42,101 nucleotides of DNA from Catajapyx aquilonaris (GCA_000934665.2 KZ538892.1:1-42101); one strand, 5' to 3'; counted from the stretch's first letter, positions 8,610 to 42,101 are shown. The notes: generated by a model from the sequence alone, not told the origin. Numbers and translations are program-made.

Positions 8610-11600
8610 CTGAAAAGAAAGCATGACAATGACATTGAAAGATGTGCGTGTCACAGTGTGGGTCTGCATCGTAACCTACTCACTTGCGCGCCTGAAGCCC
8701 TTCCTTCTGAACTGGCCTTACTGGAAGCTTTGCTTGAGGTCATGGATGCTCTGGTGCTGGTCATTTGCTTCAGGTACTCCTTGTCATCGAAGATCTTCTT
8801 CTCGCCGCCTCCGGGCCTGTGCTTTACGTTGTCCATTGACCCGATTTTACTCTGGGCTTTTTCCTTGAACTCCAGCTTGCGGGACTCCACCTGTAACACA
8901 AGCGTCCAAAATAGTAATGCCCTGACTATGCTCGGGTCAGCTATTTTATTCACCATGGAGTACTCTATAATATGTATATTACACAACCATGTGGAAACGG
9001 TTAAAAATAACTCAGGTAGGCTATTCGACAGCCTTTATATTCGAAAGAAATGTTGTCCTAAGGACATTCTTGTCGCATCTGTAGCAAGCCACAGAAGTGC
9101 ATGGACAAGCCCACTGACTCCTTCATGAAGAAGAGTCTACTTGTATTACTCTGAGCTAACAGAGTGTGAAAGTCACATGGAAATAGACATATTGGTTGAA
9201 ATTATGCCAATAGATTTGGTTTTGGAGGAACCATGATTATTATGAGGTAGGCTGTGCACTCCTTGGAGGATGGGGAAACTGTTCTGCACCACTGTATAAC
9301 AGGAAACACAACGTATTTGTTATTATACTGCAGAAGGGCAGAAAAGGAAGTGAGCGGCCGTAGAATACGCAAATCTAGTCTAAAAACATGTTGTAAGACT
9401 GTTACCTTGTGTATTCTCAGGACGGACGAGTAATCAAATTACAGGCGGAACACTACGGTAATTAGAAAAAAATACTCACTATGTTCCTTTTAGCGTCAGG
9501 AGTGTTTGTCCGACCCTAGAACACGGTAGAAACAGAAAAATTTGGGTTACAAGAGTAAAGGTAACTCAAGCACATCCGTAAACGTGCAAGAAAATAACCA
9601 AAGAGGCCCTGTTAGTCACTAAACAGACGAAATAATTGCCATTGCTGTCACATCATAGCAATTCATGCATTGAGATTGTTTTTAAAAAATGTTTTGCAGT
9701 TAGAGAATTGCTCCAAAGACATTCCAAGCTATAATGTAGAAACAATTGACAAACATATTCACTGAAGCAAACCTGTTGTTCCAATATTGACAAAGCGCCG
9801 TAACAAAAGGTCCACTATGAGCTATACCAAATATACATTTGATAGCAGGCATCCATCGTACCATATGCCAAAAGATGTTTCGGAAAATGGTGTCCTGAAC
9901 CTAAACAGCCATCAGCACTCTACCAAGGTCAATTTGATGGTAAAATCAGATTCACCTTTCTATAGTGTTGGTGGTCATGCAGCACCAGGATACGAGTGTC
10001 CGGAACGTTTGACATCATAATTATAATGCAGCCGGCACAGTTTGCAGAGTAATATCAATATTATTTCTTGTAAGCCAAATGCGAAAAAGGTTAAAAGCAT
10101 AGTGTTGTAAGAGGTGATTATATATCTAATTTAATATTGGTGCAAGGAAAATGCCGTCGAGTTAATGGTATATGGTCTGTAAGTATTGCAGCCTTTCAAA
10201 GAATACTCTTCTTAAGCAAAACTTGCGCCATTTTTGTTTCTCCTAGGTGCCTACTATTAGCCGTATTTTTGGTACATTTTACTGGCAGTTGAAAACAATG
10301 GCAAACGTTAGCACTGGGCGATTTGAAAATCTACTTCTGCTCAGTTCGCCGTGGCTGAGAGAATCTATACTCTGCATGCTTGGTAGACCTATAATATTTT
10401 CACATCATACTTGTATTAGGACATGCAGCTAATTTATGGACATCGTGCACTAATATTATGTCTCGTTTCTCAGAGTGATTACATTATCATAAGTAACTAG
10501 TGTCGCTATTAAATTAACACATTGGACTAGCGAAAATAATAATGTACTTTATAAAAACAAACTATTAAAAATACGCTATCCAATAATAATTATGTCATCA
10601 AATATATAATTTCCATGATGTCATAATATACAAGGTAACAACCCACTGACTTTATTTGTGAAAAAAGCCAATACCTTTGGGGAAAAAACTAGGCATGTGA
10701 TAAAATTGAAAATTGCGCGTCCCACAATGAAAATGAGAACTAAATAATTATCGCAAATTTTCTTAGATGTCTGTTTTTGCTGCGACGCCTTTAAGCTAAT
10801 GGCCCCAAATACTGTACAGGCTATACTGTAGACAAAACCAGAGAAACATGCTCCTTTCTAAGCAACGTCAACTGCTGCAGCTGAATGCTTCCCAACTATA
10901 GCCTTGGAAGCAGACCATTAGGGCCAATTCCATAACAATGTTATTCTAAATAATATATAAATCAACACACTGCAGTTATGATCTGAAGTCAAAAGGCCAC
11001 TGAACTCATGTTTAAAATATGAACCTACACCAGACTACATTTCTGCAATTGCAATTCACGGGAACAAGGGTGGTAAAATAGCTATCAATCATTATTAAGT
11101 CACAACTGTGAAAACCAAGATCAGTAATAATATTTCTGGTAATACTCAGGGTCAGCCGGGGAAGCCAACATGTTCCAACGTCATCTCTGAAGGACATTAT
11201 TGCATTTTGAACACATGGCGAAGGTTGTGAATTCTGAAGTAGTAATTAACGGCGTCACAAAATACAACTTTGCCATTGTGCAGTTAAGTGTGTATTTAAG
11301 TGAGACATCACCTGAGGACATCATGTGAATGACAAATGTGGCATTTACACGCGCTAGGCAAAGGGTAATTAGCGACCTTAGCACGTCGTCACATAGTTAC
11401 GGTTATGGCAAGGTCGCGGGATGGAAGATATCTGTTGTTCCTCAGTCCTACTCTAGCTTCCCCTGGCAGTCTTTTCTAGAATCTTTTCTGTGTAAGAAAA
11501 TTTTTTGCTCTTTATAAAACCGCTCCGAACGCAGCTCACGTGAACAACAGTGAAAATTTAATTATACGCTCGGAATCATCCCACTCAGTTTTTTCTTAGC

Positions 11601-14600: not shown

Positions 14601-17001
14601 AATTTCCAAAATCCTGATGCCACATCTCAGCGTAAGTAACATATTCACCCAGCGAGCCGACAACTACTAAACTGAACTGATAACAAATATAGCCTTTCAC
14701 TTTATCCTGAGGACAGTCGAACTTGGGGCAGACTATGTTCTGTCCATAGCCCCATTAACATCTCTACATTATGTACAAAATTAATGAAAATGAAAAATGA
14801 CATGATATTAGTAGGCATACCTTAGCTGTTCCACCTCCAGGCTGATGAGTCATATTGTCCCGAGAGCCCACCTTAGACGAAGCTCTTTCTTTGAAGTCCA
14901 GTTTTTTGCTCTCGATCTTCTTATCCCCGCCACCAGGTTTGTAAGTCGTGTTATCCAGAGAACCAATCTTGGATTTTGCTGACCAATTCAGTTTCTGGCT
15001 CTGGATCTGTCAATAAAATATATCAGTTTTAACAGTGTGGCGTCAGAAATACATCGACATTACAAAAATAAAAAATGTACATAAAAAATTCAATAAATTA
15101 ATTATTATTCGAGATTATGCGTGCGATATTATTTGCAATAGCAGTTCTTTTCTTAGCTCATCTAATGGACTTTGCCAGTGGGCATGCAGATTTGTAGAAT
15201 GGTGAGTGGGGATATGAGACGGGGAATCAAAACGTAACACGATGCAGATGCACATGAGACATTACATGCCATTACAAAGCCTTTGGACCACGCCACACTG
15301 GACTAGATTTACGGGCCAAAAATTTTAACCAGCTCTCGCTGTTTATACGGTCCGTTTTTTATGTCGGAGCCTTTTTGCCCCACCGCATTGTCCATAATTT
15401 TCGCTCCGCTTGTCGCAGGCCCCATTTGTTATAGACATACGTACCACTGGTTTTGACACACCGGAAAGGACAGTAGGTAATGATACCGGTACCAATTTAA
15501 AATTTTCGGTCCTGAAATTCGGTCTCTTGTGGCTTGGGCACGAGATGAACTCATAGGTGAAGGTGTGGAAGCAATAACTACAGCATGCTTCAGTTAAACC
15601 CGTATTGCTTAATGTAGGCTACAGTAGTTGAAGCGAACCTTCTTGTCTCCACCCGACGGGTTGTACTTGTCGTTGTATGCGCCAACCCTGGATTGCGCCT
15701 TGCTAAAGTCCACCTTTTTGGTCTCAATCTTGATCTGTCCACCTCCTGGTCTGTGCCGGGCATTGTCCATTGATCCAATTTTTGATTTCACACTTTTTAA
15801 GTTGGGTGATGCCGCCAAGCCAACCTGTACTTTGTTCATGGGCACTGTCCGGACAAGAAGAAAACGAGTAATCAATTACCTTAAGAATAGGTCAGCACAA
15901 TTTACATGTTAACAAAAAGAAAATGGTTCCAAGTTAATTATAAATTATTTTCTTACATTACGAAGCAAGTTAATTTTGAGTGAGAGACATCTGTGCATCC
16001 TTTCAATAGTGGAATCATGAAATCGGCAGTAGCAAATCCCAAATTTTCAGCTACCTGGATTATGCAGGGTGGTTCAGTGCTCCAAAGCTCTAAGTTTAGT
16101 TGTATTTAACGTTTAAAACAAAGTGGAGCGAAACTGATGTAGTTATGTTCATCACAGTCCTTGCATCTAGTACAATCAAAATACTTTTAGATAACATATT
16201 AGATTGTCAATTGCAAACCTTTTTGAATTATGAGCTCTGACACTTAAAATATATGGCCAAGTTTGGAGGATTTAACTCCATCACAGTATACTTGGTTACC
16301 CATCAATAATCGTCACATGTGCGGCATTGCATTGGTGGGTCCCAAGAGCAGATGGAGCGCTCACTCACCATGTCAGAAATATCACATAATATTTACTACC
16401 TGACACCCACAGCTAGAGTAGTCATATGTAATAATCTTTTCCAGCTTAAGTAGTGCTCTCAGTGCTGAGGAGTGCTCTGAAGGAGTGCTCTGACAGGGGA
16501 TGTGGCGGCGTTACTCATTAGTCATTATTTACGGGATGGGAGAATGCTTACCAGAAAATCAAGAAATAATGCCATGAGATATTTAAAATTTGCATAATTT
16601 TTTTACGGTTTCCGCTATAAGAAAATAATAGCACTGGACTTCTTCAGCAAGAACGAGTATCTCGTAATCTTTGGAGCAAAGGCGGCATTACATTTCTTGT
16701 CCGAAAGGGCTGACGCAGAAGATGGTTCTGGTGAGATCGGAGTAGTTCCAGAGCTGGGTGGAGTCTTCATGGGGCTGGGTTTGGCAACAGCTCCATTGGA
16801 CTTGCCACTAGGAGACACCATTCCCACAGAAGGACTCGTTTTGGCTGGTGATGCAACGCCCGGTAACTTCTTCGGGGCTGGAATTTTTGATGGCGACTTC
16901 TTCGGAGATGATAGATCACCGTTGGTCTGAGGCTCCTGAAACAAATCACATCCCAATGCATAAGACTCTTTTTTCACTCCCGATATCTTATTAATTTACT
17001 G

Positions 17002-20000: not shown

Positions 20001-23000
20001 GTGCCGGATTAACCCCCTTGGCCGCCCCTAGGCAGTTGAGATCCCCCACCCCCATCTCCCCAATTCCGCTTCAAAACTCAATTTTTTGTCGAGTGCTCTG
20101 CTTAATTTAATTTTTTTTAGATTACCCCGTGATACAGCCGTAAGCCGTTTGAGGGGAGTGGCATACCCCCATCAGTTTTCTAGTGTTCTTACAACTTTTT
20201 CTTCATTCTCCTGTGCAGGGAAACAGGGACATTGGGAAAGGATAGGGATTGAACTGGGGAGGGGACACTTGTGCAGGTGCAATGTCATGAAACCTTTGGG
20301 CCATGTGCAGTCCCCCAGGAGGTTAGGTTGCCAGACACCTCCTTGGTGCAGGTCAGAGACCCTCCCGACGCAGGTGAAAGGAAGTTCCCCAGGCGGGGAT
20401 CGAACCTGGGGCCTTTCACTCAGCAAGCCGAGACGTTACCATCACGACCACCACACCTCCCCATGCTTCATTTCATTTTATACTAGATAAAAATTTATAT
20501 TTCAACTTATGGCCGCCCCCGTATAGGCCTGGTGGCAAATCCGACGCTGGGAACCCCCCGACGAAATTTTTGAATTGTTACCAATTTTCGCCTTTATTTC
20601 CTATTATATTAGTGTAGCAGCTATTAGAAAAATATTTATTGCAACTTGCGGCCGCCCCTAGGCAATTCCCTGCTCTGCCCAATGGTAAATCCGGCGCTGC
20701 TTCCACTCGCTTAATTATTTATTATTAATTTTTCGCTTACTTTTTTTTTGTATGCCTAAATTTGCCGGCCCTTGAAATCTGCCGCCCTAGGCAACTGCCT
20801 AGGTTGCCTTTCCTTAAATCCGGCGCTGGATATGCTCAATAATGATCGATGCGCATAATATGTGCGAGGTGAGAAGTAAAAGCAACAGACAGTAGAAGGT
20901 GCAGAAATACAGTACGTTCTTGAGATTTGACAGTTACGATACGGCCACGGCAAAGAGAACATTACTATTGTTATGACGTGAAAATATTTGAGGGGTGCTC
21001 TTCCATAATGAGGAAAGTGCCATTTTGGCGGAAAATTACTTTTCTGTGTTTTTCTGCGACAAATGCTACCCTGCAGTTGCACTGAAAACGTGGCTGCCAT
21101 ATACGAGCCTCCGTTCCGAAAGTATCGATACCGAAAGTTTTCAGCCATTACTCATGCTACTCATGCAACGGTCAGAATGAGGCAAGTGCCAAGCAAGATG
21201 GAGGCACGTGCCTGGTTTGGGAACTTCTTCTTCTTTTGCAATTTTTCTCATATTATCAGTTTTACTAACTTACAAGCATTATTGAAGTGTTCTTTTGGTT
21301 CGTATTGTACGTATATGGTTTTGAAAATAAAAATGGGGTGCTCAAGGATACACAAGTATCCTCACAAAATGGAAAGAAACCTTCCCCTGTCAAATTTCAT
21401 TTTTGGCACTTGCCTCGTTGTGGAAAAGCACCCCACATTTTCTGACTGAGTTTGGAGCAGGGTGCAGCTGTACCAGCTTCACGCCTTCGAAAGCGATTCC
21501 TTGAGATGCCGGAAGTTTCACACCATTTACCCCGAAATTGCATGTGTTTGCGTTGTTTTCCCATAACTCGATTCAATATGGTATTCCTTAACAGCGCCGC
21601 GCCGGCGCGTATGGGTGGCGGGGCCCTGAGCCAAAAGGCGCGGGGCCCCTCCAATGCATGCATCGGCAACGCTTTTAAACTTCCCCTTGCATATGTATAT
21701 TCTCCTTATAAAGGTTTCTAGGTTAAACCACCTATAATATTTCTTCACTGCTCCTCACATGAACCTGGGATTTGTGCAGGCTGCGTCACGATGGCACCTT
21801 TTTATTGTGACACTTAGCCTGTTGCAATTCGTAAGGCCATAAACAGCTTGATTGGAGGCCTTGACACACCTTGTAGGACTCGATACAATGCAAATCAATG
21901 AATCTCAAACTGTATTTTGTGACAGAAGTTATAATACAGGGAAGGTAGGCAAAATTTAATGCACATGCAATGAGTATGTGCTGTAATACAACAGCTGATT
22001 GAATGTGATCTATTACAAAACGGGAGTTCACTTCCCCAAACTATACCTTATACAGTATTATGATTTCGGTGCTCCCCTCCCTGAGAAACATTATGAAACA
22101 CCATGTAGAACTAAAAGTATATTAGTGTACTAGGCGTAGGCCTATACACCATGCATGAGGCAAGGCACATAACACATCAGATAGGCAAATGAGATCTTAC
22201 CTGACTCTCATCCACTCCACTGTCATGATCACCTTCTGAAATAAATGAAACATAGTTATATTATGGTGGGAAATTGACTCTTTCACACTGATCCGTAATG
22301 ATTGTTGTGCTTTCTCCGTCTCAGAATGTAGTATCTTAGGCTACAAATAATTATGTAGCCTATATACATTCTGAGACGGAGAAAGGTCTGCTGAGACCCA
22401 TTATAGCCATATGTACGTATACGTATTGCTATAGTGGGTCCCAGCAGACCTTTTGCGCGAAGGCAGTATAGCAGGAGATCATTGAACCACGAAAAGAAGA
22501 CAATGTGAGGTAGGCCTACAATGTGATCACCCATCGTGTTAATAACGACGTATAGACTACTAGTCTACGAAGCTGGCTCAATACATATGACTTTTACGTA
22601 CAGTGGTGGCAGAGTGTGGCAAGTATGAAGTAGGATACCCAGAAATGTATGACCTGGCACAAACCGACATGAAAAAGTCAGTTATAGTTTTTCATCAGGG
22701 TGATTGAAAAGGTTATGCACCAATAGTCCAATTTCAGGATCATATATTAGAGGGGTCGGAATATAGCAACTATGGAATAGGAACCAAAGTTTTCCAAAGT
22801 AATTCCGATTCGGTAGGAGCCTGAAAATATCAGGAACTACGTACATTAAGAACGTAATTGCACCGTCTGAAGAGGCATTAGGTTGGTAACAGTATGAGTT
22901 GACTGAGACCTTCAGTTACTGCATTTATACAGTAGTATCTTCGTATCATCGTCATAATCATGTGCTTGTTATTCGTGCACGCGGTCGTCCACATGGAGTT

Positions 23001-25869: not shown

Positions 25870-27324
25870 GATTAAAAAGTTAAACTCACAAGGAACATAT
25901 CAGTCTGGAGTGATAATAACAGATCTTGATGAAACTGCCTATGCTAATAAAAGACAATATATGATAACCAAAAATAAGTCATTTCGGGCTGAAGTTCATA
26001 TTTGCAAAAGTTATGACGTGTTAAAGTCACAAAAATGGTACATTCCCATACAGAATGGGATTACGTTAGCGACCACATGTAATGACATTGAAGTGTGTAA
26101 TCAGTTTTATTGTACCAAATACACTTTAAAAGTAAAGAAGTAGGCCTAATTGATGAGATTGGCGGCACTCATGATATGTTATGAGATGAGCTTCTTTTGT
26201 TCTGCACATTTCAATACCGGTATTCGTTTCTGTATCAAACGTTCATTAAAAAGTGAACGGCATACTTATACGTTTAAATAAATTGTATGGCAGTTAAATA
26301 ATGTGTGTTTGGTACAATAAAACTGATTACACACTTCAATGCCATTATATGTGGTCGCTAACGTAATCCCATTGAGTATGAAAATGATTGTAATACCATT
26401 TTTGTCACTTTAACACGTCAGCGCATAACCTTTGCAAATATGAACTTCAGCCCGAAATGACTTCATTTTTGGTTATCATATACAGTATCATGGACGTGGC
26501 TGAGGCTAGGGTTGTTTGTTTGGATAGGTGTAAATGGCGTAGGTTAATTAATGGGTAAATAGGTAAATATGTCTGAGGATAAGGTGATGTCTGAGGTGGG
26601 CAGGGGTGGGGGGTGGGACAGGTTGTTTTTAGGTTTATTCTCATGAGTTTTATTAGTTCATATATTGGGTTAGCTTGCATCTCCCTTCATCGCTGACTAC
26701 CCCTCATAGGGAAATGTCGTGATGTTGTTGTTGTTGTTGTTGTATATACAGTATTGTCATTTATTAGCATATTCAGTTTCATCAAGATCCGTTATTATCA
26801 CCCGAGATATGCTCCTTGTCAGTATTTTAACGTAACTTATCGCTTCTCTAACAATGAGTGTTGAAAACTTGGGCTCTAAAGTTGAAATTGTGTATTTTTA
26901 AAATTTGAAATGACCACAGCAGACACTAAGAACCTTCCCGAATTTTAAATNNNNNNNNNNNNNNNNNNNNNNNNNNNNNNNNNNNNNNNNNNNNNNNNNN
27001 NNNNNNNNNNNNNNNNNNNNNNNNNNNNNNNNNNNNNNNNNNNNNNNNNNNNNNNNNNNNNNNNNNNNNNNNNNNNNNNNNNNNNNNNNNNNNNNNNNNN
27101 NNNNNNNNNNTAGGAGGGGATGTGCAAAGTGCAAGTGCGCTGTCGTTAATTGGTCATTTTGTGAACTCCCCCGGGTGGCTTAGTCTATCGGAAATTGCCA
27201 CCCGAAACGAAGCCAGAGATGGCCCAACTCTGCACGAAAGAAGGTGGGAACCCCGGGTGGGGATTGAACCCGGGACCTTAACTTCCGTGAGCGCACGCGT
27301 TACCGCGGCGCCACTCCGTCTCCC

Positions 27325-27398
<74 letters not shown>

Positions 27399-27410
27399 GG
27401 TGTTGTTGTT

Positions 27411-27462
<52 letters not shown>

Positions 27463-29992
27463 GTTTTAAATGTAATTTTTATGACAATGGAAATGATGAC
27501 CAATTTTCTGAGTCACATATTGTTCACGAATGATAATTTTAATAATATTTTTAATACTCGTATGCATGATTCCACATAATACGTAATACCCCATTTGCAG
27601 TATTGCCACATTTTAAAATAAGATTGATTTTATTATGTTTCTTTTAGTTATCAACACGAAAACAATGACCTGATGTCTGCTGTAGCCATTTCAAATGCGA
27701 AAATAATTGCAAATTGTCAACTTTCAAGCCCTGATTTTCACTACTCAAACAACATAGGCTACATTATTTTAAAAACTGAGTTTCACTTTTTCTGCATCTA
27801 ATATTATCAGGAACAAATTACAACATAAATTATTGTGGCCCATTGCCAAATTGAACTTTGGAGACGTCCGTTTGAAGATGCGATAGGCGTACTCGACGTG
27901 ATTTTTCTAGTCAAATTTTTACCTGGACGAACTCGTTACCATACCTGCGTATATGGTTGACGTCTCACTCTGAGTGAATCTGGTATCTCCTTACAATTCT
28001 GTAATAATGCAACCTTTACTGAAAATCAAAGTCCGGTTATATTATTTGGTTCACGCCTTATTAAGCTGCTGTTTCAGCAATCAACAATAACACTAATGTC
28101 AATCGAGAGACATTTGCTGCTTACAGTATTTTCTGCGACATTGACACGCAGTCAGTAAATAGATATGCATTATTGATAAATCAGAATACGGTGAATATGT
28201 TACTTGTAACGCGATGAAAAGTCACTATATTAAATATCATGATATAAGCCTTACCTTTTTCTTGAAACGAAGTTCCCGGTGTTTTTTCAGCCATTGCAGA
28301 TTCTTCGGCTTCCATATCAGCAATATTATTATCTTCTGATTTGCCGTCAGTTCCCGTTTCTGATGTGCTTGCGACAACTTCAGATGTTAATGTAGGAGTC
28401 ATTGCTGCCACCTCCACATTTGGTGTTTCTGAAGAGGCAGTTTCGGCCTGGTCTTGAGATTCTAATGTTGTCTCTGACTTTGCTGCATTTGTGATAGTGT
28501 CTGCCATTGCTTCACAGGAATCTACCACTTCCACTTCTTCGTTTGACACGGTTGTGACTGCTGCATTATCTACTATCTTTGGTTCGTCACCGGTTGTACT
28601 TTCATTTCCTTTCATTTCATTTTCTTCAGTTTCTCCTGCATCCACTGAACACACACTAACTTCTTCCGTTTTAGTTTCTTCTGCAGTTTCTGGTTGCCCT
28701 TCATTTGTTTCCTTCTCTTCCGTTATTAATACATTTTCTGCGTCATTGTTGGTGATGACCTCTGAGCAGGGTTCCTCTTCGTTTCCTGTCATAGTTTCTG
28801 GCTGAGGAGTAGCAATTGGAGTCATTTCGAGAAGATTGTTCTCCGTTTGTGAGTTTCCTTCCCCAGTTTCCATTTCTTCTGAAGGCATAGGTGTTTTCAC
28901 TTCTCTTTCCTCTTCAGTTGTTACTTGCACTTCACAAACTACTTCTGATTGTTCTTCAGTTCCTTCTATTGGGTTTTCTACGATGGCCTCTGTAGTTATA
29001 GTGCCTCCAGAGCATTCCTCCTCTTCATTTAGTACCTCAACTACCTCTTCCTTTTCTTCACTTTTTTCTTGCTTTTCCACCGATGATTGGTCTGTTGTGA
29101 CAACGTCAACGTTCTCCTCTACAAGTTCACATGTACCATCTCCCAATACGTCTGTTGCAGACTTTTCCACTTCTGCATGGGCTTGGACAGTAACTTCTGG
29201 GATACTCGGTGCATTGCACACTTCTCCAATCATGTCCTTCGGCCCAGACCCATCGTCTATTGGGGTAGTTTTTTCTATATCCTGAATGGGAGACTTAGCT
29301 AGTGATACTTCCTGCTCTGCATTAGTTTCTTCGTTTGATGCACTGGCGGGGACTGATTCAACGTCATTTTCTTCCGCTGGATGCTCAGCTGGTTGAGTAA
29401 CGGGAGGTGACAAGTTCACTGACTCTGGAGTTGGTGATGTCACCACGGCTTGTGTTTCGGGTCCGTCAGTGGCAGATTGATGCACTTGATCGATAACACC
29501 TGAGGCCGACACTGGCCTGGAACTAACCGCGCCTTGCACTGACACAGGTCTCGAACAACTTGGGGATTTGTCGTCCATGACTGGAGACATAACTACATCA
29601 TCGTCGTCGTCGTCCTTGCAGCCCTCTGGTTGACCATTTGGATGTAAAGCTTCAGTACCAATCTCAATATCTTCCTGACCATCACCGGTTGTGACGACTT
29701 CTACACTGTCACTCTGACCGTTCATGCTGTCAGATCCCACCAAAGTCAGTTCACGACAGACTGGAAATGCTTCTTCGTTCCCAACCCCAATCTCTTTTGT
29801 GCTCTTTCCGTTTGACAACTGGACGGTATATGTCACGTTGACATTTGCGGTTGGCGTCGGAGGCAAGTGGTCGGTTAAATTCTTCGAACAAGATAAACTT
29901 GCGCCATTAGCAAAATGGCAAGCTTTTGAAGGTCGTTGAATTTGGACGGTTTTTTTGCATGCTTCGTTTTCTCCGAAGATACTGGACAACAT
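8553..29992 (-). CDS. tau: Tau/MAP2/MAP4-family microtubule-associated protein, five-repeat invertebrate type; spliced model of 7 coding exons, 890 aa
   Basis: Exons 29992-28255, 22235-22201, 16935-16692, 15844-15639, 15006-14821, 8890-8684 and 8609-8553 have GT-AG introns with matching phases (1,0,1,0,0,0). Total 2673 nt, no internal stop. Layout is acidic N-terminus, Pro-rich region, five KxGS..PGGG-type repeats, IFDDKEYLK tail. The true start codon is uncertain. Confidence 0.9.
8684..8890 (-). CDS. tau: tau-like exon: repeat 5 and C-terminal tail
   Basis: [48 protein letters not shown]...SGAQ|GTGAGT; 207 nt, phase 0-0. Confidence 0.93.
9480..9515 (-). CDS. tau: Candidate 36-nt cassette microexon ([12 protein letters not shown]) between repeats 4 and 5
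   Basis: TTTTTCTGTTTCTACCGTGTTCTAG|36 nt|GTGAGT; open in phase 0-0, matching the host intron. Confidence 0.6.
12735..13707. mobile_element. Non-autonomous DNA element with 27-bp inverted repeats and an internal GGAACC minisatellite
   Basis: GGTAAACCATACAGTGA(C/T)GGCCAGTTT at 12735-12761, inverted at 13681-13707, with a further degenerate copy near 12598-12622. TGGAACCGG units of 10-11 bp at about 12795-12910. Confidence 0.6.
13145..13488 (-). mobile_element. tRNA-derived SINE, family A
   Basis: Minus-strand A-box-like TGGCCGAGATGG. Body shared with the 20110-20462 and 35964-36310 copies. A/C-rich tail. TSD CCATTACTGTCTT (13132-13144 and 13489-13501). Confidence 0.85.
14821..15006 (-). CDS. 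tau: tau-like exon: repeats 3 and 4
   Basis: [73 protein letters not shown]; 186 nt, phase 0-0. Not in the ORF track. Confidence 0.95.
15639..15844 (-). CDS. tau: tau-like exon: repeats 1 and 2
   Basis: GACAG|(L)[74 protein letters not shown]; 206 nt, phase 1-0. Confidence 0.95.
16692..16935 (-). CDS. tau: tau-like exon: proline-rich region
   Basis: [33 protein letters not shown]...SALSDKK+T|GTAATG; 244 nt, phase 0-1; many SP/TP sites. Confidence 0.9.
17004..17064. repeat. (TA)n microsatellite
   Basis: About 30 perfect TA units. Confidence 0.97.
17004..17426 (+). mobile_element. Non-autonomous Helitron
   Basis: 3' end is an imperfect hairpin CCTGTGCGAAGAACGGG (17399-17415) followed by CTAG|T (17423-17427). 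5' part is (TA)n then TTTGTTTGTTTGTCC. The exact 5' end is obscured by the microsatellite. Confidence 0.7.
17479..18204. mobile_element. Old MITE with degenerate long inverted repeats
   Basis: CTTCCAGGATTGATTTT (17479) and its reverse complement ending at 18204. Inner pair AAAAAGTGAAAC / GTTTCACTTTTT. Related fragments near 27770-27850 and 31360-31430. Confidence 0.65.
19999..20828. mobile_element. hAT-like MITE carrying a SINE insertion
   Basis: Termini CAGTGCCGGATT and AAATCCGGCGCTG. Perfect 8-bp TSD GATATGCT (19991-19998 and 20829-20836). The right-end motif occurs three times (ending about 20549, 20699, 20828). Confidence 0.85.
20110..20462 (-). mobile_element. tRNA-derived SINE, family A
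   Basis: Minus-strand B box GGTTCGATCC, family-A body, and 3' end TATCACGGGGTAATC plus an A-rich tail. Confidence 0.85.
22201..22235 (-). CDS. tau: tau-like 35-nt microexon ((E)[11 protein letters not shown])
   Basis: TTTCATTTATTTCAG|35 nt|GTAAGA. Phase 1-0 exactly bridges the acidic exon (ends phase 1) and the Pro-rich exon (starts phase 0). Resembles GDNDSGVDESTQ of Drosophila Tau as I recall it. Confidence 0.9.
23100..23275 (+). mobile_element. Degenerate copy of the V-like SINE
   Basis: CACGTCTAAG, GTTCGATTCCCGGGTCGGAC and GGTTTTCTCAGGGTCCTCCC match the 3277 copy. Confidence 0.6.
23427..24450. mobile_element. Foldback MITE with about 200-bp arms (outer layer of a nest)
   Basis: 23427-23627 is an imperfect reverse complement of 24256-24450 (e.g. 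TTGGCCACGGTCGGCGCTAGAGTCATG / CATGACTCTAGCGCCGACCGTGGCCAA). Confidence 0.85.
23633..24218. mobile_element. Tc1/mariner-pogo-type MITE
   Basis: Perfect 23-bp TIR CAGTAAAACTTCTATAAGTCGAA, TA TSD on both sides, and subterminal CT(A)TAA(G/C)TCGAA-type repeats. Confidence 0.9.
24991..25041 (-). CDS. Candidate 51-nt cassette or alternative first coding exon ((D)[16 protein letters not shown])
   Basis: TTTCGCTGTAG|AC ATG...TAC G|GTATAT; open in phase 1-1, matching the host intron; ATG context GACATGG. Splice sites are only moderate. Confidence 0.35.
25414..25570. repeat. Degenerate (GAATT/GAATG)n pentamer repeat
   Basis: Repeated GAATTGAA / GAATGGAA units. Confidence 0.7.
25784..25869. repeat. (AAT)n microsatellite
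   Basis: About 28 AAT units with one AAC. Confidence 0.97.
25880..26831. mobile_element. Foldback MITE with about 250-bp arms; right arm interrupted
   Basis: 25880-26128 pairs with 26294-26482 plus 26752-26831. Confidence 0.85.
26489..26743 (+). mobile_element. Short retroposed insertion (truncated SINE/LINE 3' end)
   Basis: Ends in (TTG)n, has an 11-bp TSD ATATACAGTAT (26478-26488 and 26744-26754), and splits the foldback arm. Confidence 0.75.
26951..27110. other. Assembly gap (160 N)
   Basis: Run of N. Confidence 1.
27111..27324 (-). mobile_element. tRNA-derived SINE, family B (3' part lost in the gap)
   Basis: Reverse complement matches 38463-38680; B box GGTTCAATCC. Confidence 0.85.
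27325..27461. repeat. Opposed (TTA)n and (AAT)n microsatellites
   Basis: (TTA)n at 27325-27396 and (AAT)n at 27414-27461, with a short spacer. Confidence 0.95.
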
Positions 29993-30069
29993 TGATCTAC
30001 AATCTGATCATTATCTAGAATCACATTGTCAATCAGGATTTCTTGGGACGCGATGGTTGACTGGTTCCC
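28255..30069 (-). CDS. tau: tau-like giant exon (1815 nt) encoding an acidic E/T/S/V-rich projection domain
   Basis: Long ORF from ATG 29992. Donor AAAG|GTAAGG at 28255 (phase 1). Strong acceptor TTCCTTGGTCTAACTCTACAG before 30069. An in-frame TGA six codons upstream of ATG 29992 leaves the 5' frame unresolved. Confidence 0.8.
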
Positions 30070-33000
30070 CTGTAGAGTTAGACCAAGGAAAGTCAATATA
30101 GAAGTATATAACACGTACTTTTTATTACATTGTGTCTCCAGACTGCCTATACATCAGGACAGGCTGTCATTGTGTTCAAAACACTGCCACGTGCAAGACA
30201 CGGTTGCATCTCAAGTTCCATGTAGCATTCATTGGTAGTATAGTAACCCTGGACGATTTTTCATGTAACGTTTTTTTCACCTCGTGTTTGTGAAGTTATG
30301 CAGCCACAATGTTATTATAAGCACTATTCTGCTCTAACAAATGGGGGCGGCTATACACGACATCATTAGCTCACGTTAAAGGAAAGGTCGCGATTCGATC
30401 CCATGCCTTTTGTGCGGAGTTCGTAGACCCTTTAGCTTCATGTTTGGATTGTCAACAGACTACCACGGAACGCAAGAAACTCAGGATCATATAATAAATT
30501 TAATATTGCACCTGTGTTGGTACCTTCTTGTAACGTCACAAGGCCTATACTCTGTCTGAATTAGGCTACTGTGCATAGAAAGTTGATTTTTTCAGAAGGC
30601 CACTTTGCTGTTATCTACTTTTTCAATTCATTTATACTCAATTAAAAAATTTGGCGATTACCTCATTTACAACAAATCTGAGAAAGTTAGAATTTGTGTT
30701 TAGGGAGGATCTCACTTGAGCTGATTGGAGCCACCACCTGGCTGCATTACTGTCTGGAAAGTTTGCACAAACTCATTAGATTAAAAAAAAGTTTGTGCAT
30801 CGCTTAGAACGCGATCTTTTGATTGGATGTTGCAGGCCTACACTTATTTTAAGGATCGTCATCAGGACAAGATGTTCCGGATTTTGATTACTTGCAAACT
30901 ATAGAGATTCAAATTTTTATTTGCATTGAAGCACGATAATCCTAACTTTTATTGCCAGATGCTATCATTAATCGTACACGTAGTGTCTCTCTTATCATTC
31001 AGTCCTTTTTTGTGCATGGTAGTTATAACTGTCCTTTTCAAATTGTTTTCCATAAATTGGTCAAATATCAAAATTACTCTCCACATTTTCTGCACCTACG
31101 ATTACTGCAGCTGACAATGCTGCATGAAAATAGTGTTAATTAACCTGCTATTAAACTGTTTCACGGATCATACAATCTAGCACCTCATAAAAACCTTTCC
31201 ATGCCTTAGCTGATTGGTAACCATGATTTGAAAGGTACTGATTTCATTAATTCCAGTTTTAGGAAACAACAGACAACTCTGGATATATTAAAGCCCTCGT
31301 GGATTTTAAATTGCAAAATGGCTCAATTCAAGTCAGAATTTTCCAAATACCAAAAAAAGACAAAACTGAGTTTAATTGTCATCTTACTTCTCTAAAATTT
31401 GTGACGGTTCACGGCAAAGACAATCCTGGAGCATCTTTTGAAGCATCACAAATTTTCTCAAAACATGCCTAACTTAGGCTCTACACTAATAACGATAACA
31501 ATAAACTAATTGAATGAATAACCAAAATGACTGTTCAATATTGTATAAAATTCAGTGGCCGTGAAAACATTCCAAAGACTTTACCGTACTGATACTGCAA
31601 CATTTTGCATATACAGACTGCGCCAGAAGTGCATCGTGCACATATAGGGACATAAACAAAATAGGCACAAATTACAAGTCCAAACATTATGAAACTTCAA
31701 GCAGTTCTTCCCTGTATTCTCTAAATATCAACATTAGGTATTAGATAACAGATGAAGAAAACACCCTCGACTTATCAGGGATACTCTCCTTAGATTACAT
31801 GCAGCCCACAACAGAAGAGCGCTGAACACGGATCGCGTGATACGACCTTTCATTTGCAGCGTTGAAAATAGAAACAAGGAACGCCCCTTTTCAAGCAGGC
31901 TAGATTATTCAACTTGCACCTTTAAATTTCAAAAGGAAAGCTGAAATCCAAAGGGAAAAGCATTATGTATAGGCGCATAATAATTCTACCCTTCATTTTG
32001 TTTGCAGCGACAAACCGGCACGATACGCTTAAATAGCTACTCATACCGGTACATCTCATTTACAGAGTATGAGGCACCAAAAATAGCCAACCATTTTTTT
32101 CGTGAAATGTACGGTAGTTCAATGGTATGCAGTAATACTATCTGCCAAATACACTGCGGGTAATTCTCTTTTCGCACACCCTGTGAGTGCCACTATACCT
32201 GTAGCGCATTCCTCACCTGCCGCACACGTGTGAATGTACCGAAGTTTGTGGCATTTTCAGGATATACGACAAGATACGTGACCACATTGACATTTGGAAG
32301 TAAAAACGTCGTATATTTCCACTGGCAACTTTCACTCTCGGAGTAACCCAATTATTTCGTATATATGCAGCATATCGATGCAGATTTATGAGGGTCAGTA
32401 TTAAAATACTTTCAGTGCCACCTTCCACCACGCTAATTCTTGCTTAAACTGAAGCAGGAAGTTGATCAGCTGAAGAGAAATTAGCATATCCGATATAATA
32501 ATGGAATCGCTCAGGCGATATCTCCGAGCGTGGCTAAAAGTTATTGCTGTACCTGGCAACAGTATTGATCTGGGATGAAATTCTCAAAATTTTTTATGCC
32601 ATTATCGATATAGCCGGTGTGACACGCATGACAGGGCGGGTCGCAAAATTCCTTGCCCTGATATATTGCGAGCACAGCACATCTGAGAGCCTGATCATCT
32701 CACCCTGATCTCAGCCTGATCAGTGTATATCTACATATGAGCAAACCTCGCTCAGTTATATGAGTAAATGGACTGTAGTCGAGTTAAAATTTGGCTAATA
32801 GTTGGCATAATCTTATTTATGCTCCAAGGTCAATATTTTCGTAGCATTATTTTTTTTGGACTTGGGCCACTTTTGTTCTAAGCGCCTCATATAGGATAGA
32901 CAGATCCATTAATGTTTAGATTCAGTACTGCAGTGCGACGTTACAGTGCTAGAGGCTCAGAACCGCTTCGCCAGCAAGGGTGCGATGTGGATTACAATTC

Positions 33001-33287
33001 ACCCATGGCCCTCTTAATTAGGTTGCCCTTTACCCACCGTGGCTTAAGAGGATTTCGTACTTCCTGCAGAGAAAAGCTGCAAAATTCCTACCGGAATGAA
33101 CAAAATATTAAGGGAAGCTTTTAAGCGATACTCCTAATGTGAAGCTTCTAAACATGGAATATTATTATAGACACGAAGTGACTAATATAGGTAAGTTATT
33201 GCATCAATTATTTAGTTAAACTGTTATTAAGTGCCTACCAGCAGAACCACGACAATATCTCTAATACTGTAGAAAATGCAGATCAGG

Positions 33288-33356
33288 CTGCATGGGATCG
33301 AACCTGTGACCTTTCCATGAGCATCGACGTTACCGATGAGCCACCTCGTCTCCCCC
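33288..33356 (-). mobile_element. tRNA-like SINE head fragment (family C)
   Basis: Minus strand GGGGGAGACGAGGTGGCTCATCGG...GGTTCGATCCCATGC; related plus-strand fragment at about 30343-30420. Confidence 0.6.
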
Positions 33357-34032
33357 AGCAACTTATCGTAAAATGCAGCAGATTGCAATATTTTGCCAGA
33401 AGTTTCCGCAGCATGTCATAAAATTGCTTTTACTGCGCTTTCAGTAGGCCTATTATTAGACATACGGCATATACGTAGTCAATAACCTTTTACTGCAGTC
33501 ATACATTAAAATTGGCATGTCTTATACTAAATACAGGCCTGAAAAAGCAGAACGATCAATCACACTGGAGTGATTTCAAGATAAGGATGGAAGATTGCAT
33601 TATCTCTTACGAGGGAACCCTTTTTCAAACATTGCTCTAAGGAACATTGATTGATCTATCAGAACATAAACTGGATCATTAGCAGTCAATGTCGGCCAAT
33701 TGATCATTCTTCATTTAAGTTATTTAAATTTTATAACTGCAGTTGTAACTGAATACTTCATCCCAATATAACAAAAGCGTTAACCTATACAAAAGACAAT
33801 CCTTCCCTAAATCAGAATGCCACATCTCACGTGGCTTCCAATTGTAAAATCAAATCAATACCGTTCAAGCATGGCAAACAAATCTGCAGGGTTGGAACTC
33901 GTGCAACTGACTTTAAATCACTCTAAACTGTGAAAGAAACGGCAGATTTTTTTCTTTCTTTTCTTTCGAGTACAATTGGCGAATGGAACTGAGTTGACAG
34001 TGCGACCGCAGTGCAGTGTTTTTCAACCGTAC

Positions 34033-34086
34033 CTTCAGGTTAGAAGTGGATGGATAACAGGCCACCTTTCTACCACAAGCACACAT
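34033..34086 (-). CDS. Candidate first coding exon (MCACGRKVACYPSTSNLK)
   Basis: ATG at 34086, 18 open codons, donor AAG|GTACGG in phase 0; lies about 100 bp downstream of a CRE/CCAAT site. Confidence 0.45.
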
Positions 34087-34185
34087 CAGACACTACACTT
34101 GTTCGTTTCGAGTTCGATCTCAAGCACCTCTCTGGGCCTTTCCCCCCCACACCCCATAACCCCCCCCGTCTCAACTAGCCAGACA

Positions 34186-34199
34186 GTGACGTCACCAAT
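34186..34199. promoter_or_regulatory. CRE palindrome abutting a CCAAT box; candidate tau-like promoter
   Basis: GTGACGTCAC (34186-34195) and CCAAT (34195-34199). C-runs (G-rich on minus) at 34142-34167. CACGTG at 34257-34262. Confidence 0.5.
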
Positions 34200-35963
34200 C
34201 CATAGCTAATCCACCACCTCATAAAATGTGTGGGATGGGGAAACAAATCATTAGGCCACGTGAGCACTTGGAGGCGTTCCCAAGTGACACGTAGCCTGCA
34301 TTATAAAGGGAACGCCCCCTTTTGCCCTAGGGAACAAGGGACACACAGGTGGATACCACCTCAGATTATTGCCTTCCGTCCACATTCAGGATGATGAACC
34401 CTGTTTCAAGAGATGGACTACAAGGCTCTCTTCTACGAAATTATAACCTGTGCAGGATCGCAGTGCATTTATCCGACTTATCCTATTAATTAAGAATTAA
34501 GAGAGTCAAATGAGGCCGCGCGGTTACCTCATGTTCGTGTCAATGATTACCGTATTCCAGATTAGGTGGTAATTCAAACAATTTTATCAATGTCGTTGAA
34601 GTGCACCTGTGTAATCAGTGTAGCCAAACGTTAAGTCATACGACGATAACACGCCCTGTTTATCTTGAACACTGGGTCCTTAACTATTGACAGTATTGAG
34701 GTTTACACACCACCACAGTTACTCTGGCGGTGAGAGATCATGCAACAAGTATAGTGTGATTTAAAAAAATACAGAGGTATACACACTCGGCCCTCTAATA
34801 TACTTATGGTATACGTATAGTTATTATGACAGAGACGCTCCGAACGTATCTACGTTGTGTTAGCATTTCGGTGGACGTTCTAGCCTCCCAAAAAGACAAT
34901 GATATTTTTACTTTACAAAGAGAAAGAATAGTCAGAAACTGCCTCAAAAAAATCCGATAAAATATTCCAGACGCTGACGATAAAATATGTGGGAATGTCG
35001 AGTACCAAGCATCTCCTAGGGAAATTCCGTGACGAATCGACCCACAGCACTGTAGTATATTGCGGACGCAGTAGAACTTTATTCTCTAGCTTCAGCATGC
35101 TGTAAGCCTAAATTTCGGCATTTTCTTCTGACTATGCAATTTACAGGACGTCTCTTCGCAATACCATCTGTCTTTTGGAATTACTCTTATAAAAGTTGAA
35201 TGTCAGAAATGTGTGGCTAAAAAGAAAACACACCGTTTCAAGCTGTGTATGCTGCTGGTGCAAGGGTTTAAGTCCCTGAAAAAATATCACTGACGCAGAA
35301 TTAAATGATGCATCTACACTACATCCATTGGGTCTCTCCATATCTGCCTTACGAGAAGGGAAAATGCAGTAGTGTGGTAGAGGTGACTTGGATGATGGTG
35401 ATCAAGGATGGCAAGCACGCCCCTTTCTTCCCTCATGACATGAATTGACAGGATCGATGCTTATAAGCAGTGTTGTAGTGCTATATTATATGGCCTGAGA
35501 TTCTTTTCGCTGACAGTGTGATGAAGTAAAGGAGAAGTAGAAAAAATTGGATCATATTAGTGACATCTTATTTCATCTTACTATTAGTTTGTTTCATTTA
35601 TGACTCGGTCCTCTTCTTATCACCGTAATATGCGTTCCTCTTCAGACACACCTTGCATGTGAAATGGGCCATCGATTTATCATTTACACGCTCTATAATA
35701 AATGTCAGTGCCCAGCTTGGCCCGCCTCTACGTTTCCATCAGATGCCAGCCCATCATAATGTTATCCACTCTAATAAAGTACTGTGCAGTAATTTCTGTC
35801 ATTTACAGGGATTATGGTAAATTATCATCATGATTCTAGACAACTGCGGCCTATACACAAATGGTGTCCAGATATGCTGTTTCTTCCACACCAGCAGGCT
35901 CATATTACTAAATGTAGGCAAGTACAGCAATATGTTTTTGCTTTCTTCAATATTTCAAGAAAG

Positions 35964-36310
35964 TGGGGAAGGTGATGTGGTGGCCAAGATGGTAACGTCT
36001 CGGCTTGCTGAGTGAAAGGTCCCAGGTTCGATCTCCGCCCGGAAGCTCCCTTTCACCTGCGTCGGGAGGGTCTCTGACCTGCACCTTTGGAGGTGTCTGG
36101 AATCTAACCTCCTGGATGGGGGATTGCACATGGCCCAACCAGCCAACCTTGAGACATTGCACTTGCACCCGTGTCCCTTCCCCAAAAATCCCTATCCTCT
36201 CCAATAATTGTCCTGCTTCCTTGCACCGGAGATTGAAAAAAAGTATAAGAAAATTGATGGTGGTGAACCATCCCCCAAAAAGGCCTATGTAGGCCTATCA
36301 CGGGGGTTTA
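35964..36310 (+). mobile_element. tRNA-derived SINE, family A
   Basis: A-box-like TGGCCAAGATGG, B box GGTTCGATCT, family-A body, 3' end CCTATCACGGGGG. Confidence 0.85.
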
Positions 36311-36840
36311 AAAAATATTTGAAGTAAGTCACTGATCGCATTGGCAGAAAAAGACACTGTACAATAAATCTGAACAACTGCGCTGTATTGTTGCATTATG
36401 AGCGCACTTGGAGAAGCACTTATACAGTAAAAATACTTCGCAGCTAAGCCACATGATGTGTATACTGCCATTAAGTACAGGATATTTACTCAGAGGTGGT
36501 GACACAACTTGGCGGCCTTTTTTCTTTCAGAATAAGCTGTTGGGTTGTCGTGCGCATCCTTTTGGAATGGATCTTTGAGTTCCTTCCAAAAACTACATCA
36601 TTTCATTGCCCTTTTGGCTCGCCATCTCATGGCCGAACGCTGAGTAGGTAGGGAACTATTCATAGTGGACGACAATAAATCATTTACATCCCGTTCCCTA
36701 CATCTTGATAGTCAGTCACGGTTCTATCAATAATGTAGGGGAAAGCATCGAATTATAGGATGTTTCTATAATAATATGTGCACTCGGCAGAAAGTTTATA
36801 TTTTATATAGAATGGTGCCAAAGGTGCTTGCTCGCTTCTC

Positions 36841-37158
36841 GGATTCAAGCTCCTTGCAATATTCCAAGAATAAATTATCCTAGTTGGTTTTATCGATTTC
36901 GTCTCTATTACAAAAATAATAGCTTGTGAAGTGGAATCGCATTGACCCTATATAGGTTATAGGACGTATCCTGCAGGCTAGGAAACTCGACAATCATCTA
37001 TGCTACACGGATCGCCTGGCGGGCAGGATGAGACCTATCACCAGTCAGCGTGTTACGCCGATTCAAAACTTCACAAGCTATTATCTCAGTAAGAAATCCA
37101 AAATCTTCAAAATCAATAGGGCAATTTCATCTTAGAATATCACAAGGAGACTAAATTC
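36841..37158. mobile_element. Old MITE with degenerate inverted arms
   Basis: ATAATAGCTTGTGAAGT (about 36916-36932) pairs with ACTTCACAAGCTATTAT (about 37068-37084), with weaker pairing further out. Confidence 0.55.
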
Positions 37159-38462
37159 AAGAGGAAGTGTTCACATTGGCCACCACCCTGAATATAGGTT
37201 GAAAGAACTGTGATTTGTGCAGTACATGTACAAGTCGATTGGATTGCAGGCTATACCGTAGTGACATACTCGAACTGATATACTGTATATATAAAAAACA
37301 CCTAAACTCTCACAATGAGGACGATGATCCCGAAATAGGAGCTCAGCTGTCCGGGGGTGAGGGGTGATTGGGGGCTCCAGGAAGGTGTTGGCAGGAATCC
37401 CTTTGGCCGGCCAGAAGCTACGGTTTTGTCACACTCAACATGCTGGTTGCTGATTCGATCATACTCACTTGAACATGTCATATTGTACTATTAAATCTAC
37501 AGTTACATTGTGTTACTCTATTACGTTACATTTTTTCTTTGTCTCAGACACGGTCAAATACGTGTATTTTATTACACTCTATTTTTTTAAAAATGGACGG
37601 CGAAGTTAGGGTAAATCCGCCAATGTGATAACCAGTCTCTAGTATTTCAGTTGACAACTTACGGCATTACAGTGTATCGTCTCAAGGTTTTGGACATTAT
37701 AAAAGGTGGCTAATTTGTGCAAGCTCCAGAAAACCCCACTGACCCAGACGGATAGACTGGAATAGATTTGGGATGGTATGATTTCAAGTAGCATCTCTTG
37801 GGAATGGGGGTGGGAGTTGCGTTCTACATTACACTAGCCTAGATACCAGGTGTAAACTAATAATGGTACAGTACAGTATACACAGTATAGTTATATACTT
37901 CAAAATAATGTATCAGTATATACTAGCAGTGACATTGGGCAGGACATTCATTTGCGTCATAGTGTATTGTAACCCTATGAGCATGGTGGATATGACTGTC
38001 ACGCTATCACGACTCATCTTTGCAGAAATTGATATGTAGCCTATACCTATTATATATAATTGTCTCGTCTTAATTTCCACTAGTGGGTGGCATTAAGGAT
38101 AAAAAAGGGTAACAGAATTTATAATATCCACCGAGCAAAAGATGCATTACAGTAAGCTAATAGCCAATAAATCTGATTCTTCTTGATTATTGATCGGTGC
38201 AGTCCGTTCTGGGTGTGCCAAGCTCTCCCCTATAATCCAGAATCTACTACACAGTATAACTGTATAAGGCATTCTTCTGTACATATAAATATCATACAAT
38301 TGCTCATAATGTATAATGTGCACTCTTAACTATAGCTATGCCAAATACGTGATATCAAATAATTTAACAAAATGTTACGAGATTGTGAAGTAGACTACTG
38401 TTTATTGGTCGAGAAATTTACATTAAAGCGAGTATTACTTACTGTTACCGTTATAGAACGAG

Positions 38463-38794
38463 GGAGGGAGGCGGAGTGGCGCTGCGGTAACGTATGCGCC
38501 CACGGATGTTAAGGTCCCGGGTTCGATCCCAGCCCGGGGTTCCCCCCTTCATCTCGTGCAGAGTTGGGCCATCTCTGGCTTCGTCTCGGGTGGAATTTCC
38601 GCTAAACATATCCACCCGGGGGAGTTCACAAACTATGTACCATGTTAGAACCTTTGCACTGCACATTGCACATCCCCTCCTGTCACCCTGCCCGTGGGCC
38701 CGGGCATTTCGCGAAAGGTCCCCACGAATGGCTAAAATAAAGGTCCATGATTGTACCCAAGGGGTCAGAAGCACTACCCACAATTATTATTATA
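38463..38794 (+). mobile_element. tRNA-derived SINE, family B, full length
   Basis: A-box-like TGGCGCTGCGG, B box GGTTCGATCC, (ATT)n tail, TSD ATAGAACGAG (38453-38462 and 38795-38804). Confidence 0.88.
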
Positions 38795-41094: not shown

Positions 41095-41245
41095 GCATGA
41101 GAGGGAGTGCAGTGCAGTGGGAGGAGACGGGAGAACCTCGAGAAAACCCACGCGAGACATGGAGAGAAACCATCGGAATTTGACATGGGAAATCCCCTGT
41201 CAGAACCGGGGATCGTACTCGGGACCTCAAACTACTTCACCATCT
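41095..41245 (-). mobile_element. V-like SINE copy
   Basis: Minus strand GGTCCCGAGTACGATCCCCGG and GCGTGGGTTTTCTCGAGGTTCTCCCGTCTCCTCCCAC match the 3277 copy. Confidence 0.7.
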
Positions 41246-41909
41246 CGCGCAAATATTATATTTCCAGCTTTATTGAACATAATTAAAATTCGTGTAAATC
41301 ATTGACCAATCAAACGTAAGTTTTGGCTTTTGTTTGCAGTGTTAGCCGTAGAGCGACTTATTGCGTAGAACGCGAACTTATTGCGTAGATATATCTATTT
41401 TCATGACTAGCAATCTAGTAATGATTGTAAACTTTGCTCGACGTCTGTTATTTATGTCAAATTTGCATATATATTAACCCAGTGAGTTATCTGATAGGAT
41501 GTGCTGGAGCTCCCACACTCAGCCAGCTAATAGGTTACGCTTTCAGATTTTATTTGCCGAAGTAATAGGTAAACATTATGACTGCCGATAACACCAATAT
41601 ACCGCAATATACGTACAGTACACAAAGTCATGCAGCAGAGTGGGAATTAGGGCTGTCTTGTCTGCATTAAGTTAATGATTTGTCTGTTAATGTAGAATAT
41701 TTAGAATAGAAGGGTAGTTTAATAGTCTATCAAAGAGCTGAATGACCATATTATACTCCATCCCCTATATATGTACAGAATGTTTCTTTGCCTAAAGTGA
41801 CGCCCCCAGCAGCAGAGATATGGGAGAGTTGGTAATATATTATATGGGAGAGTTGGTAGCATAATCACCCCTGGTCCGAATTATTACACCAGTCCAGACT
41901 GGTCTCTTA

Positions 41910-42034
41910 GGGCCGGTTTCACCGAGCTTGGTATATGATAAAACCAGGTTTCTTTAGGAAAATCCATACAAATAGATAGGGATTTTGAGAAATACCTTGG
42001 TTTTATCATATACTGAGCTCGGTGAAATCGGCCC
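41910..42034. mobile_element. PIF/Harbinger (Tourist)-type MITE, 125 bp
   Basis: Near-complete palindrome GGGCCGGTTTCACCGAGCT...AGCTCGGTGAAATCGGCCC with 3-bp TSD TTA on both sides. Confidence 0.88.
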
Positions 42035-42101
42035 TTAGAACTTCCTCTATATCTTTTTACGTATTTCGAGTTTGTTTACAATATTTCTCTCTCTCTCTCT
42101 C

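Follow-up and report, generated by a model that had tools for sequence, protein, structure and literature searches.

Overlapping reading frames at the 5' end of the large acidic exon of a Tau/MAP2/MAP4-family gene in Catajapyx aquilonaris

The subject of this analysis is a 42,101-nucleotide (nt) stretch of DNA from Catajapyx aquilonaris (GCA_000934665.2 KZ538892.1:1-42101), called the window throughout, and within it the 5' end of a minus-strand gene of the Tau/MAP2/MAP4 family, where a very large acidic exon (the big exon) of the long isoform begins. An earlier note on this DNA had described a cysteine-rich first exon that would reach the Tau open reading frame (ORF) only through a -1 shift at a run of seven A residues (A7). 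The coordinates and letters of that observation hold. Given nine comparable exons and the commonness of open frames, the construction of first exon and frameshift is indistinguishable from a chance arrangement, which explains it about as well. The identity of the gene, its main frame, the phase of a conserved micro-exon, and the expression of the big exon with splicing at 28255 stand on firm ground.

The 5' end of the long ('big') isoform is probably an ordinary one for an arthropod Tau/MAP2/MAP4-family gene: a non-coding leader, with translation starting inside the big exon. The start codon would most likely be ATG 29992, or possibly a second in-frame ATG (Met90, ATG 29725), and the 77 nt from a putative splice acceptor at 30069 to ATG 29992 would form an untranslated leader, contributed by an upstream non-coding exon through splicing or by transcription that starts nearby. 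The open upstream frame, the A7 run and a mini-ORF 4 kb upstream, whose peptide begins MCACG, would then be presumably non-coding coincidences in A-rich, stop-poor sequence, singled out for lining up and not for forming a device. The case suggests caution, as in A-rich, stop-poor exons an overlapping frame that happens to be open can line up by chance with a homopolymer and with a mini-ORF some way off.

The candidate first exon, the upstream frame and the A7 run

The elements of the proposed construction are as follows (a slash marks an exon boundary):
34033..34086, minus strand: candidate exon 1 (hypothetical), ATG plus 17 codons, MCACGRKVACYPSTSNLK; phase 0, donor AAG/GTACGG
30069..30090, minus strand: putative splice acceptor tttccttggtctaactctacAG/G, with predicted exon start at 30069; 12/17 pyrimidines, ctctacAG/GGG
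29875..30069, minus strand: upstream ('alternative') frame, from the acceptor to TAA 29877-29875; 64 codons without ATG, overlapping the main ORF
29950..29956, minus strand: A7 run in A_AAA_AAA register, GCA AAA AAA CCG in the upstream frame

Joined by coordinates, exon 34086-34033 and the acceptor at 30069 give an 82-codon frame that ends at 29875. The earlier note had placed the ATG at 34086, the donor after 34033, the acceptor before 30069 and the A7 run at 29956-29950, in the register GCA AAA AAA CCG, all of which are correct, as is the length of 82 codons. One extra A, or a -1 slip at A7, would fuse the upstream frame with the main frame. The upstream frame lies within a 92-codon stop-to-stop ORF (29875-30153), with no ATG between 30153 and 29957. 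The acceptor at 30069 is the sole site with at least 12/17 pyrimidines within 29650-30160, with another such site at 30333, and the other AGs in 29600-30160 reach 9 or 10 of 17.

The region of the candidate exon is single-copy within the window, and no CpG island was found at 34001-34500 (observed/expected 0.56). A perfect cAMP response element (CRE) palindrome, TGACGTCA, occurs at 34187-34194 on the minus strand, upstream of the candidate ATG at 34086 by roughly 100 nt. Near this palindrome, at about 34260-34290 on the same strand, are CACGTG/ACGTG boxes and G7-G8 runs, which have a promoter-like look without CpG enrichment.

Taken singly, no feature of the construction is conspicuous against chance. 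The donor AAG/GTACGG agrees with the consensus at 7/9 positions, as do 24 of the 718 minus-strand GT sites in 30070-42101. The same interval contains nine ATG-started, stop-free, phase-0 candidate exons with donors scoring at least as high, on seven distinct donors; with nine equally good candidates, a first exon that fits the frame is to be expected. Of 20000 dinucleotide shuffles, 766 are open over 64 codons, as are 4091 of the sequence's 82732 windows of that length (4.9%); over 92 codons, 1528 of 82228 real windows are open, and 43 stop-to-stop ORFs of at least 92 codons are present in the window. At a density of 29 homopolymers of seven or more letters in 42101 nt, the 132-nt stretch shared by the two frames should contain about 0.09.

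Codon usage was assessed with a log-odds model trained on the gene's own exons, in three exon sets. The 37 codons of the upstream frame from 30069 to 29959 score +12.8, and their codon usage is borderline coding-like. With the model of conserved exons the result is not significant (p 0.165). The coding signal of the upstream frame is weak, and the codon model draws mostly on a single acidic exon whose composition is similar.

Several observations weigh against an ordinary leader with accidental features. The whole 92-codon ORF is open in 33 of 20000 shuffles, and the A7 run falls exactly in the register that permits a slip. In comparison with stop-free non-coding windows, the 37 upstream codons reach p 0.028 with the own-exon model and 0.025 with the big exon only, and in comparison with stop-free shuffles of their own letters p 0.054. 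The best-scoring frame, moreover, changes from upstream to main at about the A-run. Lastly, ATG 29992 has a weak context and is preceded by two out-of-frame ATGs within 35 nt, an arrangement that is awkward for an efficient start.

Gene identity and the expressed large exon

By its sequence, the minus-strand gene is identified as a Tau/MAP2/MAP4-family homologue of arthropod type, and the following exons were placed from splice motifs and homologue alignments, together with possible start sites and a conserved motif:
28255..29992, minus strand: large acidic projection-domain exon, main ORF, from ATG 29992 to donor AAAAAG/GTAAGG; 579 codons plus one base, ending in phase 1
29997..30026, minus strand: two tiny upstream ORFs (uORFs) in the putative leader, ATG 30026 (1 codon, ATG-TGA) and ATG 30011 (4 codons, stop ending at 29997)
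29723..29725, minus strand: second in-frame ATG (Met90), possible alternative start; context gacagcATGa, A at -3
29588..29614, minus strand: acidic motif DDDDDDVVM in the main frame, common to arthropod long isoforms
22201..22235, minus strand: 35-nt micro-exon with conserved GDHDSGVDE; phase 1 in, phase 0 out, continuing the frame in which the big exon ends
16692..16935, minus strand: proline/serine-rich exon, with boundaries suggested by splice motifs and with homologue matches by tblastn
15639..15844, minus strand: tubulin-binding repeat exon R1 (PF00418, 70.3 bits)
14821..15006, minus strand: tubulin-binding repeat exon R2-R3 (PF00418, 107.7 bits)
8684..8890, minus strand: tubulin-binding repeat exon R4 with conserved tail (PF00418, 54.9 bits); donor CAA/GTGAGT

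The window is eukaryotic and its nearest protein relatives are arthropod. Tubulin-binding repeats above the gathering cut-off of Pfam PF00418 (Tau and MAP tubulin-binding repeat; 27 bits) are found in three exon ORFs, at 15.8, 15.0 and 9.0 kb, and PGGG motifs are located at 15749, 14937, 14841 and 8815. As the R4 exon ends at a donor, more 3' exons are expected. Queried with the R4 exon ORF, 732 candidates yielded 131 Tau/MAP2-like proteins at E<=0.001, and the 120 of these that were listed form the homologue set for all counts given here. Unnamed transcript-derived proteins and two crab entries stand at the top of the list, followed by many insect entries; the best identity is 63%, and PF00418 is present in all 120. 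With these repeats and arthropod homologues, the label 'Tau ORF' in the earlier note was correct.

Outside the repeats, tblastn of the 120 homologues on the window (E<=0.01) gave seven matches in the proline/serine-rich exon at 16692..16935, and the micro-exon at 22201-22235 (minus strand) is the most conserved element, with DSGVD[ED] present in 98/120 homologues. Since the big exon leaves in phase 1 and the micro-exon enters in phase 1, the two join in frame. The MCACG exon, which ends in phase 0, is thus unable to head a short isoform that joins the micro-exon. The order of the acidic motif, the GDHDSGVDE micro-exon, the proline-rich region and the repeats is the same as in arthropod members of the family, which identifies the gene, by element order, as their orthologue.

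The acidic motif also marks the main frame of the big exon, which on this sequence evidence is the orthologous frame. The pattern [DE][DEN]{2,}D[VI][VI] is found in 23/120 homologues, at distances of 30 to 361 residues from their N-termini, and precedes the DSGVDE motif in every homologue that has both. Given these offsets, the 126 residues ahead of the motif in C. aquilonaris are unexceptional. The form DDDDDV[VI], usually followed by a polar stretch, occurs in crabs, flies, moths, a caddisfly, a leafhopper and midges (P0008, P0010, P0017, P0022, P0085 and others). Amid N-terminal regions that cannot be aligned, this motif may be a candidate conserved docking site of the long isoforms.

Expression of the big exon is supported by the single public sequencing run that contains it, X1 (kind not on record, 32 million letters), which was compared over 27600-42101. 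Five contigs agree with the big exon letter for letter and without gaps, over 1140 nt of the interval 28255-29691; the matched sequence includes two T6 runs and one T5 run, all without an indel. Contigs of X1 cover neither 29692-30503, where the A-run and the acceptor at 30069 lie, nor 33892-34375, around the candidate exon 1. One contig follows the genome up to 28255, precisely the predicted donor, and then diverges for 26 further letters, in a comparison that included the adjacent intron. From this departure exactly at the donor, we infer that X1 contains spliced complementary DNA (cDNA), and thus that the big exon is both expressed and spliced at this donor.

At its other end, the main frame is closed by a TGA at 30010-30008, upstream of ATG 29992. 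The earlier note was right about this TGA just before the ATG and about the context TCAATGT; the extended context is agatcaATGT, with T at -3, which under the scanning and Kozak rules is a weak start context. The uORF from ATG 30011 stops 5 nt ahead of ATG 29992, and both uORFs are out of frame.

Searches for relatives of the sequences ahead of the acidic motif gave no support to any one frame. The MCACG peptide has no match among the 120 arthropod homologues (best E 2.0), nor does the upstream-frame (GNQST) peptide (best E 0.17), and the main frame ahead of the acidic motif is likewise without a match among them. Because the accepted main frame is also matchless, the absence of conservation of MCACG and GNQST is uninformative rather than negative. 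No conserved N-terminal exon was found by tblastn of the homologues (E<=0.01) in the 17-42 kb part of the window, and, judged by eye, none of the 120 has a cysteine cluster of the MCACG kind at its N-terminus. For the big exon itself, a word-index search for relatives of near and longer lengths found none. A phmmer search of 30007-29408 (the first 200 residues) against 1.84 billion representatives returned four hits, all spurious matches of repeat proteins to a Ser/Pro-rich stretch; two of the four, P0001 and P0004, were rejected as unrelated repetitive proteins.

Furthermore, no Pfam family was found in the big exon or in the upstream-frame ORF. Rfam gave no matches over the window, and ARAGORN no transfer RNA (tRNA) genes. 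A metagenome scan by protein gave 130 pattern matches with none confirmed, and a scan by the exact 29-mer adjoining the A-run gave no match. Among the titles listed on MAPT ribosomal frameshifting and tau S-palmitoylation, none concerns a frameshifted or N-terminally acylated Tau isoform.

The window also contains an interspersed repeat resembling a short interspersed nuclear element (SINE), with a tRNA-like head that ARAGORN does not call as a tRNA. Its two long copies, 38465-38681 and 27112-27325, are 85% alike, and shorter matches are located at 33294-33355, 36006-36033 and 20396-20425. In run X1, depth summed over the segment 38248-38731 is about 2900. One long copy abuts a scaffold gap of 160 N (26951-27110), which lies in the intron downstream of the big exon beside long (ATT)n/(TAA)n-type and other simple repeats (27268-27579). 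In addition, there is a single N at 4548.

Alternative accounts of the 5' end

A different account holds that a one-base indel conceals an N-terminally extended long isoform. The true or ancestral run would be A8, with entry at 30069 in phase 0 from an upstream exon that need not be MCACG; A7 would be an assembly error, for which an A8 in a short coding stretch would have to have lost one A to the assembler, or a recent real deletion, in which case ATG 29992 would be a rescue start. Homopolymers are where one-base errors classically arise, the upstream frame stays open past the acceptor with borderline coding-like codons (p 0.025-0.054), the best frame changes at the A-run, the acceptor at 30069 is the best locally, and ATG 29992 has a weak context behind two small uORFs. 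The coding signal is, however, lost under the conserved-exon model, and the big exon shows no indels relative to X1 across 1140 nt, T5-T6 runs included. The variable-size N gap and the single N suggest a short-read-based assembly, in which A7 errors would be rare. With no upstream coding exon found and no homologue support, this account is unlikely, though it retains some weight.

Slightly less probable is an exon structure that differs from the one preferred here, in which an upstream coding exon enters at acceptor 29981 (phase 2) or 29818 (phase 0), or in which the mRNA starts in or near the exon and translation starts at Met90. Both acceptors exist, Met90 has A at -3, and the varied N-termini of arthropod homologues suggest alternative first exons. 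With 9/17 pyrimidines each, however, the two acceptors are weaker than that at 30069. In addition, the main frame is open and mildly coding-like over the 74 codons from the A-run to Met90 (29947-29726), which reach p 0.032 in comparison with shuffles; across the models that contain the big exon the range is 0.032-0.071, and with conserved exons only the value is 0.40.

A regulatory role for the upstream frame is doubtful, and a shade more so than either of the foregoing. An upstream exon, MCACG or another, would provide an AUG for an overlapping uORF, and ribosomes would end at 29875, lowering translation of the long isoform. The frame does stay open from the acceptor at 30069 as far as 29875, with a 39-codon overlap at the main start, the MCACG exon fits in phase, and under the Kozak rules the weak contexts of both AUGs permit leaky scanning. 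Yet the upstream exon and its junction are hypothetical, the MCACG exon belongs to a set of nine candidates at chance level, open frames of such length are common in the window, and the frame has no match among the 120 homologues.

The remaining account is programmed -1 frameshifting at A_AAA_AAA, which in some rounds of translation would fuse the cysteine-rich N-terminal peptide to Tau. The element that bears on it is the following:
29895..29925, minus strand: hairpin GCCAUU-UUGCU-AAUGGC plus lower stem, starting 24 nt after the A-run

Canonical -1 frameshift sites combine an X_XXY_YYZ heptamer, a spacer of 5-9 nt, and a pseudoknot or stable hairpin. The A_AAA_AAA heptamer is shared with such sites and stands in the correct upstream-frame register, with a hairpin downstream; the locus differs from them in having no structure at 5-9 nt and none stabler than shuffles. 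The hairpin proposed in the earlier note exists, and its spacing was found to be 24 nt after the A-run instead of about 30 nt. Its region folds over 60 nt with a minimum free energy of -10.5 kcal/mol (z -1.39; 21/200 shuffles as good), and the 120 nt downstream of the A-run fold no better (z -1.28; 27/200 shuffles as good). Without a stimulatory fold at 5-9 nt, and with z of -1.3 to -1.4, the ranking of this mechanism in the earlier note as the least likely is supported. To our knowledge, cellular -1 frameshifting in animals is very rare. A distant, weak hairpin, an upstream frame without its own ATG and the absence of matches among the 120 homologues leave programmed frameshifting with a negligible probability, and an equally slight one attaches to the idea that a -1 slip doses a short cysteine-rich, possibly lipid-anchored and membrane-tethered form of the arthropod Tau long isoform. 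A real extension of this kind would make the protein the first of the Tau family to have a dedicated membrane anchor, and perhaps a rare case of cellular frameshifting.

Comparison with known systems

The likeness to palmitoylated N-termini, which the earlier note had drawn, concerns GAP-43 and MAP6. GAP-43 is palmitoylated at Cys3/Cys4. In MAP6 and MAP6d1, N-terminal palmitoylation occurs on Cys 5, 10 and 11 (PMC4272302). In the hypothetical 18-residue peptide of C. aquilonaris, cysteines stand at positions 2, 4 and 10, with Arg/Lys after them, a likeness of composition with no claim of homology. Palmitoylation would thus be a lead only, since it is based on Cys 2, 4 and 10 of this peptide and is not inferable from three cysteines.

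A closer comparison is provided by the long isoforms of arthropod Tau/MAP2-like proteins, such as P0008 ('microtubule-associated protein 2-like', Portunus trituberculatus) and P0022 ('tau-like isoform X2', Macrosteles quadrilineatus). Identity does not exceed 63% even in the repeat exon, nothing can be aligned ahead of the acidic motif, and their N-termini are unlike MCACG, GNQST or MLSSIF. On the other hand, these proteins share with the C. aquilonaris gene the C-terminal PF00418 repeats, the proline-rich exon, the GDHDSGVDE micro-exon, and a DDDDDVV motif upstream within a long, poorly conserved region.

In vertebrates, Big tau exon 4a and the projection exons of high-molecular-weight MAP2 are large exons whose presence is conserved and whose sequence is not (PMC9755724). 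Exon 4a is an internal cassette that follows the conserved coding exons 1-4. In C. aquilonaris, the 30069 acceptor and the 28255 donor bound a segment of 1815 nt, which is divisible by 3 and, in the main frame, has both of its ends in phase 1; despite this cassette-like length and these phases, the main frame is closed by three stops just past 30069. What is shared with the vertebrate exons is one very large projection exon, here of 1737-1815 nt and without a detectable homologue. The big exon may be likened to Big tau exon 4a and the MAP2 projection exons in size and presence, and as a candidate cassette only, with no claim of shared sequence. As it stands, the locus is a Tau/MAP2-like gene of ordinary arthropod kind, whose acidic projection exon is very large and fast-evolving.

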